Source: a virus
Taxonomy: Duplodnaviria; Caudoviricetes
Length of the DNA: 64,000 nucleotides
Direction: 5' to 3' (one strand)
IMG/VR virus record: IMGVR_UViG_3300021431_000096
Location: 1 to 64,000 of that record
Made by a program: the position numbers and the translations under genes. The notes beneath the pieces are model-generated. The model made no database searches. It was not told where the DNA came from and saw only the letters and a list, made by a program, of their open reading frames with translations. Each line of letters begins with the position of its first letter. Positions within the stretch are counted from its first letter, which is position 1. Positions 2,286 through 39,901 of this stretch are shown here, in pieces.

Positions 2286-2885
2286 ATGAACAAACAGGAA
2301 ATGTATCAGCAGGCTCTATCGAAAGCTATCGAGCAGGCAATAAACGGCAAGAGCGCCGTGGCGGAGTACACATCGCGGTTGGCCGAGATGAAGGCAGAAC
2401 AGATACTAATGGGAAGTCTTGGAAAGGAATTTGCGTGCAAGGGACTTGACTGCCGTGGCCGACTGGTGGCGGTAGGCTACGAGGCGAAGCGCGAATACTG
2501 GGACAGGGATAGTTATGCCTGCCGCGAAGAGACTGCGCTTATAATCACGCTGTGGTTTGCCAGGGACGTGACCGACATGATCGAGGCCAAGGGTGTGACC
2601 GATGCAGAGAAGCGCGAGTTGAAGTCCGTACAGCGACGCTACAATTATGTCAAGAAAGGCTGTTGCTTCGACCACTATTATTGTAGTGGTAGTATTGCCG
2701 ATAGCGAGAACAAGGTTGCCGAGGCAATGGAAAATATACGGAATAATTTGAACTCGCTGAAGAACGGAATCAAAGCCTTGACTTCGGCTACTTACTATTA
2801 TTCCTTAGAGAAAGTCCTGGCTGACGACTTTATGAAAATCGGCCTTAGTTACGACGGACAATCAATACTTTGCAGACCGCTTTAA
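2286..2885 (+). CDS. Hypothetical protein
   Basis: 199-aa ORF with AAGGCGAT-ATG start context. Confidence 0.7.
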   Translation: MNKQEMYQQALSKAIEQAINGKSAVAEYTSRLAEMKAEQILMGSLGKEFACKGLDCRGRLVAVGYEAKREYWDRDSYACREETALIITLWFARDVTDMIEAKGVTDAEKRELKSVQRRYNYVKKGCCFDHYYCSGSIADSENKVAEAMENIRNNLNSLKNGIKALTSATYYYSLEKVLADDFMKIGLSYDGQSILCRPL

Positions 2886-2927
2886 TTCGTGTATAAAAAG
2901 TAACAAGCAATTAAAACATTTACGATT

Positions 2928-3470
2928 ATGAGATCAAGAACAGCACAATGGTTTGAGTGCAAAATCAAGTACGAGAAGGTGATGGAGGACGGGCTGCAGA
3001 AGCAGGTCGTGGAGCAGTATGTGGTCGATGCCCTGTCGTTTGCAGAGGCGGAGCAGCGTATCACTGAGCAGATGTCGCAGTACATCAGCGGCGAGTTTGA
3101 GGTGGCCGACGTGAAGAAGGCGGCCTACAAGGAGGTGTTCTTCGACGATGACAATGCGGAGAGCGACCGCTGGTACAAGGCGAAACTGGACTTCATCACC
3201 ATCGACGAGCGGACGGAGAAGGAGAAGCGCAGCCGCGTGACCTACCTCGTGCAGGCTACCAACCTGAACCGCGCCATGAAGAATGTGGACACGGTGATGG
3301 GCGGCACGATGATCGACTACGACGCTGCCAGCATCAGCGACACGAAACTGGTGGACGTGTTTGAAACGATGGAGCAGCGAGAGCAGAACGGAGCTCGCTC
3401 CAGTTATGCCGAGTCGCGACAGAGTTCGACCGAAGGTCAATACAGCAAAGGCAACGAAGCCGAGAAGTAA
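2928..3470 (+). CDS. DUF4494 family protein, C-terminus extended by a palindromic repeat
   Basis: WFECKIKYEK...G.QK.V.E.Y.VDALSFAEAE.RI...DRWYKAKL.FITIDE...KEKR...YLVQA; tail QREQNGARSSYAESRQ derives from the repeat at 3376-3420. Confidence 0.85.
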   Translation: MRSRTAQWFECKIKYEKVMEDGLQKQVVEQYVVDALSFAEAEQRITEQMSQYISGEFEVADVKKAAYKEVFFDDDNAESDRWYKAKLDFITIDERTEKEKRSRVTYLVQATNLNRAMKNVDTVMGGTMIDYDAASISDTKLVDVFETMEQREQNGARSSYAESRQSSTEGQYSKGNEAEK

Positions 3471-3507
3471 GTTTTAACGACCACGGATTACACGGATTTT
3501 ACGGATT

Positions 3508-4275
3508 ATGATTGAACTTGACAAGATATACAACGAGGACTGCCTGCTGGGCATGAAGCGCATCGCTGACGGAGCGGTGGACTGCATCATCACGGATCTG
3601 CCGTATGGCGTACTCAATGAGCAGAGCGAGGGCGGTTCGTGGGACAGCATCATCCCGCTGGAGCCGATGTGGGAGCAGTTCAAGCGAGTGACCAAACCCA
3701 ATGCGGCCATCGTGCTGTTCTGCCAAGGCATGTTCACGGCAAAGCTGATGATGTCGCAGCCGAAGATGTGGCGATATAATCTGATATGGAAGAAAGGAAA
3801 TCGTACAAGCGGCTTTCTCAATGCGAACCGTATGCCTTTGCGTAATCACGAAGACATCGCAGTGTTTTATCAGCAACTACCGACATACAATCCGCAGAAG
3901 ATCAAAGGCGCGGTCAATCATGGTTCGGGCGATATAAAGTCGTACAAGAATCGCTGTTATGGCGATTTCAATCCAGTGGAGTGCGACAAGTCGGGAATGA
4001 AGTACCCTATATCGGTCATTGACTTTGACCGCGAGTTTGATATTGACCAAATGTCTCACCCCACCCAGAAGCCCGTCGATTTGCTGCGCTACCTTATCCT
4101 GACCTACTCCAACGAGGGTGACACCATCCTCGACGCGACGATTGGCTCAGGCACGACGGCTGTGGCGGCTCTGATGGAAAAGCGTCACTTTATCGGCTTC
4201 GAGACCAACAGGGAGTATTTCGACATCGCACAGCAGCGCATCGACGACGTGCGGCGCAATCCGACACTATTCTAA
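3508..4275 (+). CDS. N4-cytosine/N6-adenine DNA methyltransferase (beta class)
   Basis: DCL.GM...D..VD.IITDLPYG catalytic motif, HPTQKPV.L..YLI.TYSNEGD.ILD...GSGTT SAM-binding motif. Confidence 0.9.
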   Translation: MIELDKIYNEDCLLGMKRIADGAVDCIITDLPYGVLNEQSEGGSWDSIIPLEPMWEQFKRVTKPNAAIVLFCQGMFTAKLMMSQPKMWRYNLIWKKGNRTSGFLNANRMPLRNHEDIAVFYQQLPTYNPQKIKGAVNHGSGDIKSYKNRCYGDFNPVECDKSGMKYPISVIDFDREFDIDQMSHPTQKPVDLLRYLILTYSNEGDTILDATIGSGTTAVAALMEKRHFIGFETNREYFDIAQQRIDDVRRNPTLF

Positions 4276-4339
4276 ATTCGTGAAATTCGTGAAATCCGTG
4301 TTCAGAAAAAATAATTAGTAATTAACAAGCAACAGAGAT

Positions 4340-4717
4340 ATGACACGACAAGAATTAGAACGATTACGCCAGCCGTGGCCGCCGGTAATGGAGATGGCCA
4401 TGAGGGCTGGAGGTTGCGACCTGGAGCCGACGTATATTGAGGAAGGGTACGGCTGCTACTCCACGGGATTCTTCCGCTGGAAGGGGAAGGACATCGCCAT
4501 AACCATCGACGCAGGGCTGTGGCACCTGTCTGCCGCCTGCAACCACACGCTGGGCTACTACGAGCTGAAGGAGATACGCTACACGTTCCTGCCCAACGCC
4601 ATGTTCGTGGCGCAGGTGTTCCCTCCCCGCGAGGACTTCGTGAACGTGCATGAGAACTGTTTCCACCTGTGGCAGCTGGCACCAGGCGGCTACGCGGAAT
4701 ATCAAAAGGAGGACTGA
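4340..4717 (+). CDS. Conserved phage hypothetical protein
   Basis: WHLS...YYELKEIRY.F.P....AQVFPPREDFVNVHENCFHLW motif common in phage early regions. Confidence 0.7.
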   Translation: MTRQELERLRQPWPPVMEMAMRAGGCDLEPTYIEEGYGCYSTGFFRWKGKDIAITIDAGLWHLSAACNHTLGYYELKEIRYTFLPNAMFVAQVFPPREDFVNVHENCFHLWQLAPGGYAEYQKED

Positions 4718-4740
4718 ATAAATTAAAAACAAAAGGCGAT

Positions 4741-5532
4741 ATGTTGATAAAACTTACAAGTAAATGCTCGATGATGTGTCCGCATTGCATGGAGGACGCG
4801 CAGGAAACGGGACTGATGATGACGCTTGACACGTTCAAGCAGGCCGTGAAATTCGGCACGTATATAGGCAACATCCATTTCGTGCTGTCTGGCGGCGAGC
4901 CGACGGAGAACGAGCACATCACTGAAATGTGCGAATGGCTCGACATGGCTACCGGCTGCAACTTCACCATCGTGTCGAACGGCATGTGGCTGAAGGACGA
5001 GCGCAAACGTCAGCGCATCGAGTGGATAAGCCGGCTGCACTGCTACCTCGGTATGCAGGTATATACCAACAGGCAGTGGTACAAGGAATACGACTATGTG
5101 GTGAGCCACAAGCACGAATACGAGCGGTACAACAAGGTGATTGTCGATGCCGACTCTCACATCTTCATGCAGGACCTCGGGCGTGCCAGGACAAACCCCG
5201 ATGCACAGAAGGAGGTGGACCAAAACCCACACTTCATGTCGTGTCTGAACACAACGCTTGCTGCTATTCAGAAGCCCGACCCGCAGGAGTTCGGTATCAC
5301 GATGATGCTGCACCGCCAGTTCTGCAAGCCGTCGGTGGATTGCGAGGGCAACGTACACATGTCAGAGAGCCGCCTGTGCCCGTCAGTTGGCAATGTCAAT
5401 ACCGACAACTTTGCCGACATCTGGCAGCGGATGCGCGAGTTCCGCCCGTGTGGTCACTGCAGGCAGTACCGGAAGTTCATGGAAAGCCCGCGCCCCGACA
5501 TTGCAGCAGCGCGAGCCGTGATGGGGGTGTAG
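4741..5532 (+). CDS. Radical SAM protein with SPASM/twitch-like C-terminal Cys cluster
   Basis: CSMMCPHC (CxxxCxxC), SGGEPT, SNG, C-terminal C...C...CxxC; start moved to GGCGAT-ATG at 4741. Confidence 0.85.
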   Translation: MLIKLTSKCSMMCPHCMEDAQETGLMMTLDTFKQAVKFGTYIGNIHFVLSGGEPTENEHITEMCEWLDMATGCNFTIVSNGMWLKDERKRQRIEWISRLHCYLGMQVYTNRQWYKEYDYVVSHKHEYERYNKVIVDADSHIFMQDLGRARTNPDAQKEVDQNPHFMSCLNTTLAAIQKPDPQEFGITMMLHRQFCKPSVDCEGNVHMSESRLCPSVGNVNTDNFADIWQRMREFRPCGHCRQYRKFMESPRPDIAAARAVMGV

Positions 5533-35875: not shown

Positions 35876-37285
35876 ATGGCACAGGAATTTGACATTTTGA
35901 AAATCGGAGGCGTTCCCATCAACGCCTGCGACGTCGTGGCACGCCAGCGCATCGACGAGCTGGCAGCAGCCAGCGGCGTGACCTACTTCGGCCGCGTGTG
36001 GAACCTCCAGAACTCCACGCCCGTGGCCGACCACTACATCGGCAACCTCGCCTTCGGACAGCAGCTGCCCGAATGGCTCGGACTGGGCTGCTACATCGTG
36101 AAGAACGACCACAGCCGTAAGAAGCTGATGGCCGACAACCATTATAAGTACGAGAACGGTGCTCCCGCCAAACTGGATGGTACAGAAGGCCATTACCAGT
36201 GGGGATGGGGCAAGAAGTTCTATATCGTGGTGAAACAGCAGGGCGACGAGCTGGCGCTGATTATTGCCAAGGGCAAGATTCCCGGCGAGGTGAACTACAC
36301 CATTCCCGTGGCCTCTGAGTCTGCGGCTGGATGGGCTACGATGGAACGCAGCACTGGTAAGCTGGTAAGCTACATCAATATGGGTGCCGACTACCGTGGT
36401 GGTAACAACGACAGCAGTCGTGACGGACAGTATAACACTATGCTCGGACGCCCTGCATCTTCTATGACTACCAACGCATTCCTGACTGCCGCCCGCCTGA
36501 ATGGCGACGGATGGCTGGGTGCAAGTATGCGCTTTGACTGCGTGAAGGCCATACTCTTCTACGTCATCTTCGGTAACCTGAACGTACAGGCCGCCTATAA
36601 TGCCAATAAGGACGCCAATGGACTGTATCAGGGCGGACTTGGTACTGGTCCTACCAATGCAGGCGGTTGGTGGGGAGCCAACTGGGACTATTATCCCGTG
36701 TTCCCACTGAGTGCAGGTATAGAGTTGGGCGACCGTTGTGGCGTGTTCAACTATGTAGTGAAGGACGGTGAGGACAATACGTTGCAGACCATGCAGGGTA
36801 CCTGTTTCTTCGGATTGAAGAACGGCATGGGCGGTATCATGTGGAAGATGATGACCGACGAGTTGCTGCAGTGTAATGAGGATAAGAGTCAGACGCACCT
36901 GATAGCCGAGAAGATTTGTAAGGTGGACGGCAATTACACCTACAGCATCGGCAACAGCGCTACGGGCTTTAAGGTTGGTGGTACCACACCTGCTTATGAG
37001 AGTGCTGCATGGAACAGTATCAGCCGCGTGCTCTTCAAGAATCTTGAGCTGCTGCCTATCGGTGTCGGTCAGACCAATCGCTTCAGCGATGATTATTACA
37101 ATCCTGCTATAACCTCCGGGTTCCGTCTTGTGCTCCGTTCCGGCTCTCTGGACCATGGTGGTCGGTGTGGCCTTTCGTTTGTCCTTGGTTACATTGGTGT
37201 CGGGAATGCCTATGCGTACGGCGGGTCGTCGCTCTGCGAAGTGACCGAGGAGTGGAGCGTGGACGGAGAGTACGTCGAGGTCTAA
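35876..37285 (+). CDS. DGR target protein (probable receptor-binding protein with C-terminal variable region)
   Basis: Carries the VR at 37114-37234; the G.R...R.G.......CG........G.......G..LC pattern fits C-type-lectin/FGE-like DGR targets. Confidence 0.9.
   Translation: MAQEFDILKIGGVPINACDVVARQRIDELAAASGVTYFGRVWNLQNSTPVADHYIGNLAFGQQLPEWLGLGCYIVKNDHSRKKLMADNHYKYENGAPAKLDGTEGHYQWGWGKKFYIVVKQQGDELALIIAKGKIPGEVNYTIPVASESAAGWATMERSTGKLVSYINMGADYRGGNNDSSRDGQYNTMLGRPASSMTTNAFLTAARLNGDGWLGASMRFDCVKAILFYVIFGNLNVQAAYNANKDANGLYQGGLGTGPTNAGGWWGANWDYYPVFPLSAGIELGDRCGVFNYVVKDGEDNTLQTMQGTCFFGLKNGMGGIMWKMMTDELLQCNEDKSQTHLIAEKICKVDGNYTYSIGNSATGFKVGGTTPAYESAAWNSISRVLFKNLELLPIGVGQTNRFSDDYYNPAITSGFRLVLRSGSLDHGGRCGLSFVLGYIGVGNAYAYGGSSLCEVTEEWSVDGEYVEV
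37114..37234 (+). repeat. DGR variable repeat (VR)
   Basis: 121-bp match to TR with 15 mismatches, all at TR adenines. Confidence 0.97.
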
Positions 37286-37342
37286 GGATTACGATGTGGT
37301 CAATGTGTTCAACAGGTGACAAAGGTTAACAAAAAGGGGGCA

Positions 37343-37372
37343 AGCACGCCCCGCCCCAAAGCGGGGCGTGCT
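37343..37372 (+). other. GC-rich perfect hairpin/cruciform between VR and TR
   Basis: AGCACGCCCCGC-CCCAAA-GCGGGGCGTGCT, extendable by AAGGGG/CCCCTT. Confidence 0.7.
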
Positions 37373-37411
37373 CCCCTTCGCTCTAAAAAACATGGTAGCT
37401 CTCGTTAAAGA

Positions 37412-37532
37412 CTCCGGGTTCCGTCTTGTGATCCGTTCCGGCAATCTGAACAATGGTGGTCAGTGTGGCCTTTCGATTGTCAATGGTAACAATGGTGTCG
37501 GGAATGCCAATGCGAACAACGGGTCGTCGCTC
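37412..37532 (+). ncRNA. DGR template repeat (TR)
   Basis: Ten AAY codons plus ATC, CAG and ATT in the VR frame (23 adenines); lies just upstream of the RT. Confidence 0.97.
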
Positions 37533-37687
37533 ATCTTTATTGGAATATTCAAAAATATACATTGGACGACGAGAGTGCCACGCCTCATGGCGGAAAATAA
37601 ACTGGGGGTGCAAGTGTTGGTAGGCTCACGCGGAAGGACCGTAACAGAGTGCGAAGACAGGAGCATCTAATGAATAAAGCAGAATAG

Positions 37688-39220
37688 ATGAAGACGATAA
37701 AACGACTATCGGACGACATAGCGACTGTCAATAATTTCATCGAAGCGCATGAGAACTACACAGAGACAAAGCCTTATAGGACTGATATCCGTGAGTTTGA
37801 AAGCAACTTCACTGCAAACATCAGAACACTTCTTAGAGCATATAACCTTGGCAACTGGGTGCCACCAGAATACGAAGAGCGTACTATCGTAGAACATAAC
37901 AAGCTACGGAAACTTGGTGTTTATCCTGCGGCAGAGCACAATATAGAATGGGCAGCACTGAATTATCTGGAGAAACCGTTGACCGATACATACATCCGCA
38001 ACTCTTGCGCCTGCGTCAGAGGACGAGGACAGAATGACTTTATTGATATCATATCCCGCGCCATGCGCAACAGTTATGATGACACACGCTACGGCGTGCA
38101 ACTGGATGCGCACCACTACTTTCAACTGATAGATCACAATATCATAGAGTGTGTGCTTGAAAGGAAGATCAAGGACGAAAGGTTGATGCGGTTACTGCAC
38201 AATATCCTGAGTTCTTTCATGAACGGATTGGTGCTCGGTACTAAACTCAGCCAGATAGAGGCGAACTTCCAACTGTCGCCCTTTGACCACGGAGCACAAT
38301 CATTATGGGGTGTTCGCAACGATGTGGAGAAGATGTGTTACTGGCGCCGAAGATATGTTGACTGGTGCATAGCAACCGTGCGAACCAAGGAACAGGCCGA
38401 GGAGCTCGCCAAGGGCGTGCAGTACCTGAACGCGAAGTTCGACAGCCTTGTGGACAAGGGCGTGTTCTATGCCAGGTTTGCCGACAACATCATCATGCTC
38501 TCTGGAGACAAGGCATTCTTGCATATCGTCACCGAAATTGCCATTATGGTGCTGGCACGGGACTATCACTATCAAACTAACAAGTCGTGGAATGTCCGAC
38601 CTGTTGAACCCGATGGCATAGACATCTGCGGTTATGTATTACATCATTATTATAGAAAAGTAAGAAAACGCATTAAACAAGATTTATGGAGAGAGGTCAT
38701 ACAGCTTCGCAAAAAAGGGAAATCGCCAGAGGAAATACGCCTGGCATGTGCCTCGCGTATTGGGTGGCTAACGCATGGCGACTGTAGGAACCTTCTCAGG
38801 AAAATGAATGTCAATATGGAAGAACGGCTTGGCGATAAGATTAAGAAAAAGAGAATAATGATTCCTTTTGAAGGTATGACGAAAGAACAGCGACGTTCTA
38901 TCGAGGACTTTCTTTGTTATACTGACGAAGACGAAAATGATAAGATGATTCTCCTTTTGGAATATACTGTCGGCAAGTCGATATTTCCAGGAAAAGAAAA
39001 CCGTGCTGCGTTAAGGTTCAAAACTTCAAACGGAATCATTCGTCATCCCGATGGTACCACAGAGCATCAGTGGAGTGAAGAGGAACTTTACGCATGGACT
39101 GGTTCACAAATACTGATAGAACAGATGTTGCAGGAGTTCTCACCAGAAGATTTGCCTGCGCCGACGGCCATTCACGAAAACACGAACAAATACGGAAAGA
39201 AATATTATAAGTTCACTTAA
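37688..39220 (+). CDS. DGR reverse transcriptase with a C-terminal extension
   Basis: SCACVRGRG, QLDAHHYFQLIDH, GLVLGTKLSQ..AN, ARFADN, GIDICGY; adjacent to TR/VR. Confidence 0.93.
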   Translation: MKTIKRLSDDIATVNNFIEAHENYTETKPYRTDIREFESNFTANIRTLLRAYNLGNWVPPEYEERTIVEHNKLRKLGVYPAAEHNIEWAALNYLEKPLTDTYIRNSCACVRGRGQNDFIDIISRAMRNSYDDTRYGVQLDAHHYFQLIDHNIIECVLERKIKDERLMRLLHNILSSFMNGLVLGTKLSQIEANFQLSPFDHGAQSLWGVRNDVEKMCYWRRRYVDWCIATVRTKEQAEELAKGVQYLNAKFDSLVDKGVFYARFADNIIMLSGDKAFLHIVTEIAIMVLARDYHYQTNKSWNVRPVEPDGIDICGYVLHHYYRKVRKRIKQDLWREVIQLRKKGKSPEEIRLACASRIGWLTHGDCRNLLRKMNVNMEERLGDKIKKKRIMIPFEGMTKEQRRSIEDFLCYTDEDENDKMILLLEYTVGKSIFPGKENRAALRFKTSNGIIRHPDGTTEHQWSEEELYAWTGSQILIEQMLQEFSPEDLPAPTAIHENTNKYGKKYYKFT

Positions 39221-39247
39221 TATTCATCATTTTAAAATGTTTTGATT

Positions 39248-39901
39248 ATGAAAACAAGAAGTTATCAGTCAGGTTTGACTTACGAAAAGTATGATCGCGA
39301 CCACATTGCAATCTACTTCAACGAGACAACAAAGGAAGTGCCTTCGGGTAATGATAGGGAATCGACACAGGTAGAGTATGAATACGATACTGTGCTTGTG
39401 GCTGCTGAGACTCCTTCAGTAGAGGCATTTGCAGCAGCCCTTGTGGCTAATGGCATAGCCTTGCTTGATGCACAGGCTATTGCTACGGGTATTATCTTTG
39501 CTTCAATCCAAAAGGGGCAGTTGGAGGGTGATGAGCTTGCTGCAGCCAAGGAGATGGTACGAGCCAAGATTACTGCCTACGACTCGTCATCGGCAGTTAA
39601 TGAGTTTACCTATCAGGGAACGCCGATGTGGCTTGACAAAGACACACGTGCAGGTTTGATGCTGCGACTGAATGCCGAACAGGCTGGTGGTCACGAAAAC
39701 ACAACGTTATGGTATGGCACACAATCCTTCTCGTTGCCTGTAAGCAGTGCTATACAGATGCTTACCGCATTGGAACTTTACGCATCGGCTTGCTTCGACA
39801 TGACGGAAGAGCACAAAGCCGCTGTTGATGCCAAACACACGGTTAACACCGTATTGGCATACGATTATACGCAAGGCTATCCCGAAAAGCTGGCTTTCTA
39901 A
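39248..39901 (+). CDS. DUF4376-like tail-fibre-associated protein
   Basis: I.AYDSS.AVNEF...G..MWLDK.TR.GL...L..LELYA..CFD.T..HKAAV...YDYT.GYPEKL.F. Confidence 0.75.
   Translation: MKTRSYQSGLTYEKYDRDHIAIYFNETTKEVPSGNDRESTQVEYEYDTVLVAAETPSVEAFAAALVANGIALLDAQAIATGIIFASIQKGQLEGDELAAAKEMVRAKITAYDSSSAVNEFTYQGTPMWLDKDTRAGLMLRLNAEQAGGHENTTLWYGTQSFSLPVSSAIQMLTALELYASACFDMTEEHKAAVDAKHTVNTVLAYDYTQGYPEKLAF

Follow-up and report, generated by a model that had tools for sequence, protein, structure and literature searches.

A conserved C-terminal domain with a predicted OB fold in the reverse transcriptase of an Avd-less phage diversity-generating retroelement

The retroelement and its reverse transcriptase

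In this study we analyzed a stretch of 64,000 nucleotides of viral DNA (Caudoviricetes), hereafter the window, which forms the first 64 kb of the 93,359-bp IMG/VR record IMGVR_UViG_3300021431_000096. The record is estimated to be about 95% complete. Positions 35876-39220 are best explained as a complete and recently active phage diversity-generating retroelement (DGR) in the order target, variable repeat (VR), template repeat (TR), spacer and reverse transcriptase (RT), without a gene for the accessory protein Avd. The RT carries behind its thumb an additional C-terminal domain that is conserved, has a predicted oligonucleotide/oligosaccharide-binding (OB) fold and is restricted to cassettes lacking Avd.

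All elements of the cassette lie on the plus strand. The target gene (35876..37285) encodes a tail protein of 469 amino acids (aa) that matches phrog_5302 'tail protein' with an E-value of 2.4e-44, and it contains the VR at its 3' end, inside the last 170 nt. The VR (37114..37234) is a 121-nt direct repeat of the TR (37412..37532) with 88% identity. At every difference between the two copies the TR carries an A, and accordingly 15 of 15 mismatches fall on TR adenines. VR and TR are separated by 178 nt, TR and RT by 155 nt, and besides the VR no further TR-like copy was detected in the 93-kb record. Near-identical copies of 37000-39400 were present in ruminant gut metagenomes from cattle and sheep, covering at least nine studies. 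Across independent bovine and sheep metagenomes the VR of this element differed at TR-A positions and the RT gene including the domain was almost invariant. Moreover, one bovine run (X4) contained two alternative 136-nt VR contigs (window 37115-37250) at depths of 4.5 and 10.7, which deviated from the window at 16 and 17 positions. This is consistent with diversification that is ongoing within a population.

The open reading frame (ORF) at 37688-39220 encodes an RT of 510 aa. Its core (residues 1-376, 37688..38815) comprises an N-terminal extension, fingers, palm and thumb and matches the reverse transcriptase family phrog_1423 (E 2e-57), a match that spans residues 1-400 only. The best match among solved structures was the Bordetella RT (bRT; PDB 8ub7, 328 aa), to which residues 5-195 and 260-373 could be aligned, up to bRT residue 319. 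The DGR-specific motif 4, [ILV]GxxxSQ, is present as GTKLSQ (residues 184-189). Motif C reads RFADN (YARFADN, residues 261-267; window 38483-38491) and thus departs from the canonical YxDD. Asn267 aligns with the catalytic Asp216 of bRT; an asparagine is found here in 53 of 58 clade members, and D140 and D266 are invariant. As the differences between VR and TR are adenine-only, RTs with the RFADN motif are regarded as active. The conserved asparagine at the position of the third catalytic aspartate is an enzymological puzzle. No mention of YxDN-, YADN- or FADN-type RTs was found in the searchable literature.

Compared with bRT, about 50 aa are inserted between motif 4 and motif C (query 195-260 versus bRT 193-209). 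This palm insertion (residues ~196-259; window 38273-38464) occurs throughout the clade with the consensus ...EKMAYWRxRYV...CRT..QA.EL.KGV.YL..KFD.... The relatives of this enzyme are best explained as an RT clade marked by four linked features, namely a C-terminal domain of ~125-180 aa, an RF(A/M)DN motif C, the palm insertion of ~50 aa and the lack of avd. The GC content is 0.40-0.53 across the RT gene (37600-39300) and 0.55-0.63 in the flanking tail and structural genes. Since the RT gene is more AT-rich than the tail genes around it, the RT part of the cassette seems to have come from a source of lower GC.

The C-terminal domain: conservation and predicted fold

The C-terminal domain (residues 377-510 and the stop codon, 38816..39220, plus strand) is composed of a basic helix, a PFEGM motif, an OB-type barrel and a basic tail. 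An earlier note on this stretch, made from the sequence alone, had described an extra domain that begins behind the thumb with an in-frame ATG in an AT-rich context and that is rich in beta-strands and OB-fold-like. Our analysis bears out this description. The ATG at 38816 is Met377 of the 510-aa ORF, and the alignment with bRT stops at residue 373 (...GDCRNLLRKM), which shows that the thumb ends before the added domain. As bRT (8ub7) aligns only up to this residue, approximately 134 residues are left without a bRT counterpart. The GC content over 38700-39300 is 0.40-0.42, compared to 0.55-0.63 in the flanking structural genes.

Homologues of the domain were found almost exclusively as parts of RTs. 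When the domain by itself served as query, a word-indexed search returned 11 proteins, ten RTs of 502-522 aa and one RT fragment of 295 aa. In an exhaustive HMMER search of 1.84 billion representatives, 43 matches were obtained, and in every non-fragment among them the domain forms the C-terminal end of an RT of ~500-550 aa. Searching with the RT core yielded ~85 RTs of 500-583 aa, nearly all of which end in ...TGSxxLIxQ...DLPxPT.I...K.KKFYKFT. In IMG/VR, 190 loci encode a relative; 80 of these were fetched, and in nearly all of them domain and RT share one stop-to-stop frame. Apart from these loci, ~100 related RTs contain the domain. The GenBank phage collection holds the domain in one record only (MT835875), where it is unannotated. 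Over 57 homologues, identity to the window was 26-77% (median 40%) for the domain and 31-92% (median 50%) for the core, and the two values were correlated (r = 0.86). Therefore, the domain evolves together with the enzyme and under constraint. It is a real and conserved module and no chance extension of the ORF. Neither the domain nor 13 members of its family matched a Pfam entry (best hit R3H with E 0.06, below the cut-off), and a profile search with the domain against the sequences of solved structures gave a best E of 0.4.

The fold was approached by structure prediction. AlphaFold2 on the whole RT as a single sequence gave a predicted local distance difference test score (pLDDT) of 36 and this model was unusable. 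For the domain alone, modelled with an alignment of 63 sequences, the mean pLDDT was 91.3 and the predicted template modelling score (pTM) 0.81. DSSP assigned to this model the elements E45-54, E62-76, E82-95, H98-106, E115-123 and E129-133 (domain numbering), corresponding in RT numbering to b1 421-430, b2 438-452, b3 458-471, the helix 474-482, b4 491-499 and b5 505-509. They are preceded by a short helix at 5-12, which contains KIKKKR, and by two further short helices. The predicted model thus has five main strands besides short helices, in agreement with the beta-rich character noted earlier, and its order b1-b2-b3-alpha-b4-b5 is that of an OB fold. This order is the defining one of the OB fold.

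Structural neighbours of the model pointed in the same direction. Foldseek against the PDB gave a best E of 0.012, and the top ~30 hits were all single-stranded DNA-binding proteins (SSB) or PriB. Rescoring of the Foldseek top 1000 produced a best Z of 4.9, again for an SSB. VIA-align against 48,161 PDB representatives ranked the OB domain of RuvBL2 first, with a Z of 5.7 over 70 aligned residues at a root-mean-square deviation of 3.0, although according to the tool's own note best Z values of 7-8 are common by chance. It was followed at Z 3.2-4.7 by SSBs, PriB, editosome OB, Teb1, RPA, CST, ligase OB and the SSBs of Pf3 and PRD1. Among the viral models of BFVD, phage SSBs (E ~1e-3) were retrieved together with two viral proteins that bear an RT annotation. 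In the ESM Atlas, 21% of the members of the nearest cluster carry Phi29_Phage_SSB with a score of 0.94, the recognition value of the query being below the tool's reliability mark. The OB assignment is drawn from the topology together with the uniform list of OB matches and not from any single match. On this basis an autonomously folded OB module is well supported by the model at the level of topology, and the model lends no support to a tie with one OB family in particular. The earlier suggestion of an OB-fold-like domain is in line with the predicted strand and helix order and with weak neighbours that are overwhelmingly OB folds of the SSB, PriB, editosome, Teb1 and RPA type.

SSB and PriB of bacteria and phages, the dominant structural neighbours, share the order of strands and helix with the domain. 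They differ from it in that there is no sequence similarity (Pfam, PDB), the Z values are low (4-4.9) and the domain forms one chain with a polymerase. In addition, the domain is not uniformly charged. Its isoelectric point (pI) is 5.5, with a family median of 6.5 and a range of 5.2-9.1, and the net charge over domain residues 21-110 is -7. Basic residues are found in the N-terminal helix (KIKKKR) and in the C-terminal tail (...KYGKKYYKFT), in which K125, K128, Y131, K132 and F133 (domain numbering) are invariant. Besides, the coding sequence of the domain contains an inverted repeat of 23 nt (38857-38879 and 39018-39040; 87% complementary, 138 nt apart), which may have arisen by chance.

Absence of Avd and comparison with known systems

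To our question whether Avd is encoded elsewhere, six-frame searches were performed with three models, PF05635, PF22296 (bAvd) and TIGR02436. The window's own 93-kb record, about 95% complete, gave no match to any of them, so that the absence of avd from the rest of the genome, presupposed by the earlier note, was confirmed for these models. As a positive control, PF22296 recovered the Avd of BPP-1 (NC_005357, L095) at E 2e-37, and in the six-frame search PF05635 and TIGR02436 missed it. Because PF05635 does not find the BPP-1 Avd, the census was repeated with PF22296 and TIGR02436; a census by PF05635 alone is an undercount.

Avd was absent from 27 of 28 related IMG/VR records with a gene for an RT fused to the OB domain (RT-OB), 19 of the 28 being at least 90% complete; counting the window's own record, 28 of 29 were free of Avd. 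In the sole exception (G016) avd is located 37 kb away from the RT-OB cassette and belongs to a second, canonical cassette of the order target-avd-TR-RT. The RT of this second DGR (L096, G016:C1:41000-49000, 2594-5265, minus strand; VR 4488-4604, avd 3991-4407, TR 3814-3930) has a YVDD motif and no OB tail, and in the assembly a frameshift breaks it in two. Similar results were obtained from the layout of the cassettes. In 67 of the 80 fetched RT-OB loci the RT is closely preceded by a VR and then a TR, and practically all differences between the two fall on adenines of the TR. The VR-TR gap in these 67 loci is ~150-540 nt (mostly 250-300 nt) and the TR-RT gap mostly ~150-250 nt, so that an avd of 300-400 nt would find hardly any space or none. 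Thus, in the 28 related records and the window's own, OB domain and Avd exclude each other within a cassette. Judged by the adenine-restricted mismatches, the Avd-less RT-OB cassettes are active.

Avd (bAvd/Bbp7 of BPP-1; PF22296, related to PF05635) is likewise a module of ~110-140 residues dedicated to the DGR RT, and it presumably serves the need that we propose for the domain, the positioning of RNA for an RT without another nucleic-acid-binding subdomain. In build the two are unlike. Avd, a separate protein that binds to the N-terminal extension of the RT, consists entirely of helices, folded as a four-helix bundle, and assembles into a pentameric barrel of basic character; its pI is given as ~9.5 by Wu et al. 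(2018, PMC5758913). The domain described here is a predicted beta-barrel, acidic to neutral, fused behind the thumb and without a match to an Avd hidden Markov model. As it shows neither the four-helix bundle nor the high pI nor the profile match of the Avd family, it is not a member of that family.

DGRs without Avd and RTs with extensions have been described before. According to the 2018 survey, ~20% of DGR RTs carry extensions of up to ~150 aa without recognizable motifs, and Lineage 3 (target-TR-RT, Architecture A) has no avd, with none detected elsewhere in the genomes by profile searches (Wu et al. 2018, PMC5758913). The authors conclude that Lineage 3, being without Avd, has to rely on another mechanism (PMC5758913). 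The present cassette has the target-TR-RT order of that lineage without accessory gene, and its RT carries an extension. For the extensions, no fold, family or function and no connection to the loss of Avd is given in the text consulted (PMC5758913). The Avd-less architecture of Lineage 3 was repeated in the report on the crAssphage LMMB (PMC7290462). We found no paper in the literature which assigns to these tails an OB fold or a role as stand-in for Avd. What our study adds is that the tail is assigned an OB fold and that RT extension and Avd loss are linked; the extensions and the Avd-less lineage were already known.

The earlier note had also proposed to test whether the domain co-occurs with Avd-less DGRs. 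Such co-occurrence holds within the RT-OB group (27 of 28 records) but does not extend to the two other Avd-less phage DGRs that follow. The RT of the Lineage-3 crAssphage LMMB is ~25-26% identical to the window RT and ends in a tail of ~95 aa that is unrelated in sequence, and the RT of Bacteroides phage Versailles (396 aa) has neither an Avd match nor such a tail. Since Versailles lacks this tail and that of LMMB is unrelated, the OB domain is not a universal answer for DGRs without Avd. Likewise, the suggestion in the earlier note that the domain resembles small ORFs behind the RTs of Bacteroides phages did not hold for the 142-aa ORF of Versailles and the 162-aa ORF of Hankyphage, for which hhalign gave E 0.1-0.4. 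Taken together with the RT tails of LMMB and Versailles, the comparisons of these sequences with the domain profile ranged from E 0.09 to 0.5, i.e. no similarity was detected.

A different picture emerged for the RT of Hankyphage (Bacteroides phage p00) itself, which also belongs to an Avd-less phage DGR and has 434 aa including a tail of ~110 aa. This tail (...FFTNS...FPFETTIKTETFGKGRTKYIFT-COOH) aligns end-to-end with the domain (...YAWTGS...LPAPTAIHENTNKYGKKYYKFT-COOH). By hhalign the E-value was 0.059 with a profile of 13 sequences and 0.021 with 61 sequences, covering the last 43-45 columns and reaching both C-termini. The alignment is no more than suggestive of homology between the two tails. 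No diverse profile could be built for the Hankyphage tail, as all its homologues among the matches listed were at least 89% identical. The Hankyphage RT differs from the window RT in having a normal YCDD motif C and in lacking the basic N-terminal helix and PFEGM segment.

Possible functions of the domain and neighbouring elements

bRT is inactive without Avd (10.1101/2023.10.23.563531). Avd works ~40 Å away from the active site, where it positions the template-primer duplex and binds the spacer RNA, and bRT has no additional RNA- or DNA-binding subdomains (10.1101/2023.10.23.563531). For the RT-OB enzymes we propose that the OB module could act as an accessory for single-stranded nucleic acids that is covalently tethered to the thumb. 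It would hold part of the DGR RNA, i.e. the spacer or the template-primer region of the TR, and/or the nascent cDNA, and would supply in cis the substrate positioning and processivity which the pentameric Avd provides to bRT in trans. Nucleic-acid binding, a requirement in cDNA synthesis and a role equivalent to Avd are candidate properties of the domain. Similar solutions exist in the D domain that RTs of group II introns carry and in telomerase-associated Teb1, where an RT likewise gains grip or processivity from an added binding module; the comparison is by analogy alone, and the OB domains of Teb1 were among the weak structural matches (Z 3.6-3.8).

A partner for such an interaction could be the TR-RT spacer (37533..37687, plus strand), presumed to be the cis-acting RNA of the DGR. 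We aligned 20 related spacers (MAFFT/RNAalifold) and found a hairpin with a stem of 4 bp (37581-37584 / 37589-37592) that covaries among these loci, the compensatory pairs being CGCC/GGCG, CACC/GGUG, UGUC/GACA, CGGC/GCCG and UUCC/GGAA. Two blocks are nearly invariant, GGUAG at ~37618-37622 and AGCAGA(C/U) directly 5' of the RT start. By analogy to the Sp RNA of BPP-1 (10.1101/2023.10.23.563531), the spacer is likely a cis-acting scaffold of the DGR RNA. The conserved spacers of the clade, with their covarying hairpin and invariant blocks, would thus offer a specific RNA scaffold to which the domain could bind.

We give the interpretation as a helper in cis with an Avd-like function about even chances. 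Several observations weigh against it. The domain is acidic to neutral and in this respect unlike the basic Avd. Domain, ADN motif and palm insertion are inherited as a set, and because of this co-inheritance the comparative data cannot tell which of the three features makes Avd dispensable. Versailles has no Avd match and lacks such a tail, and LMMB has an unrelated tail. A helper encoded by the host is also conceivable. The structural matches are all weak (Z < 6; PDB Foldseek E > 0.01), and an OB fold fits the binding of proteins or small ligands as well. Clean split forms of RT and domain are rare, the two loci concerned (L005 and L004) standing on one contig each.

The broader proposal that the entire clade consists of self-sufficient, single-polypeptide DGR RTs with a two-carboxylate (D...ADN) site, in which the OB domain replaces the pentameric Avd for positioning of RNA and primer, is more tentative and we regard it as rather doubtful. 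If it applied, one protein and one RNA would suffice to reconstitute adenine-mutagenic retrohoming, and a self-sufficient fused enzyme would be a simpler chassis for tools of targeted mutagenesis than the pair of bRT and Avd. About one quarter of DGRs are Avd-less (PMC5758913). How these carry out reverse transcription becomes a directly testable question through a domain of the OB type that is conserved, is predicted with high confidence and is the mark of an active and abundant clade of Avd-less RTs.

The OB module might instead act after synthesis, binding and protecting the single-stranded cDNA and passing it on to the machinery of replication or recombination that would replace the VR, i.e. 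in a step of retrohoming. The nearest folds are indeed ssDNA binders of replication and replication restart (SSB, PriB, phage SSBs and the Phi29-type SSB), the domain is placed behind the thumb at the exit of the product, and an overall acidic character, as in the domain, is common among OB proteins of the SSB type. We also know of no mechanism described for the integration step of DGRs, on which such a function would provide a first handle. However, this explanation does not account for why it is just the cassettes without Avd that have the domain, and canonical DGRs with Avd integrate without it; we hold it to be unlikely. Comparably improbable in our view is a protein-protein or regulatory module without nucleic-acid binding, which might let the RT oligomerise, dock on the basic core of the RT or bring in a host factor or the product of the downstream gene. 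The contrast between the acidic barrel core and the basic RT core (pI 8.9; family median 9.2) would suit such docking, as would the top structural match, domain II OB of RuvBL2 (Z 5.7), which is largely at work in protein assemblies, and the conserved small gene that begins within 2-3 nt downstream of the RT-OB gene in other loci. OB folds are functionally promiscuous and also serve the binding of proteins and small ligands. Nevertheless, ssDNA and RNA binders dominate the list of structural matches, and the basic N-terminal helix and the invariant basic and aromatic residues of the tail resemble elements of nucleic-acid contact.

A further reading is that translation from the ATG at 38816 yields the domain, besides the fusion or as its main form, as a free protein of 134 aa that would act in trans and perhaps as an oligomer like Avd. 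Of 58 aligned RTs, 52 keep Met377. An internal start would fit this conservation, which is no proof of one, since a conserved methionine may be structural. The local sequence is A-rich with a GC content of 0.41, as is typical of starts in Bacteroidota; that the host belongs to this phylum is a guess from the names of homologues (Prevotella, Proteiniphilum). A natural split form is found in one metagenomic lineage at locus L005 (P0031), where the RT ends with ...ENLLN-TAG and, 2 nt later, an ATG opens an ORF of 130 aa (METPRKRLG...FFRFT) that begins at exactly the methionine equivalent to Met377. This locus is represented by one 1.2-kb contig, and the same protein was found in a second sample. 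At L004, a single contig of 559 bp, a stop lies two codons ahead of the methionine. On the other hand, a scan for sigma-70-type promoters just upstream of 38816 found none, although it does not model promoters of Bacteroidota, and almost all of the 80 loci fetched keep the fusion in frame. The contigs from RNA libraries touch the cassette only in the VR-TR region and at the domain's end, and as Logan contigs they are uninformative on transcript ends or an internal start. Taken together, a separate product seems quite improbable to us.

Other candidates for split or stand-alone forms were rejected, most of the short stand-alone matches being artefacts of assembly. P0075 (an RT of 388 aa and an ORF of 158 aa, 12 contigs) was tried as a functional split, and it has a 1-nt frameshift in a run of A and no TR/VR pair. 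Because of the frameshift and the lost TR it is probably a decaying cassette. P0016 as a stand-alone domain proved to be an artefact of an N-gap in the scaffold L009, and in L010 and L007 the contig stops while the frame upstream of the apparent stand-alone domain is still open.

An RFADN RT with a 1-nt deletion in a run of A just past the start of the OB domain was observed at L001:4001-5640 and also in L002 and L003. Loci of this type, represented by 12 contigs, lie in a Hankyphage-like context with genes for thymidylate synthase and a methyltransferase downstream, and no TR/VR pair was found within 9 kb. They have the look of a cassette in decay.

Downstream of the RT gene the window encodes a protein of 219 aa (39242..39901, plus strand), whose C-terminal part matches DUF4376 (Pfam, E 4e-6) and which is similar to the tail fibre family phrog_1807. 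It could reflect a conserved synteny of tail genes or be a further component of the cassette, and its membership in the cassette is uncertain. In other loci a family of ORFs of 117-132 aa starts within 2-3 nt after the RT-OB gene, with copies at L001:5642-6040, L005:873-1223 (cut by the contig end), L007:571-942 and L010:479-871 and pairwise BLASTP E-values of ~1e-6 to 1e-34. The N-terminus of the 219-aa DUF4376 protein of the window (...TYEKYDRDHIAIYFNE...) is weakly similar to this family, with E-values of 0.001-0.1.

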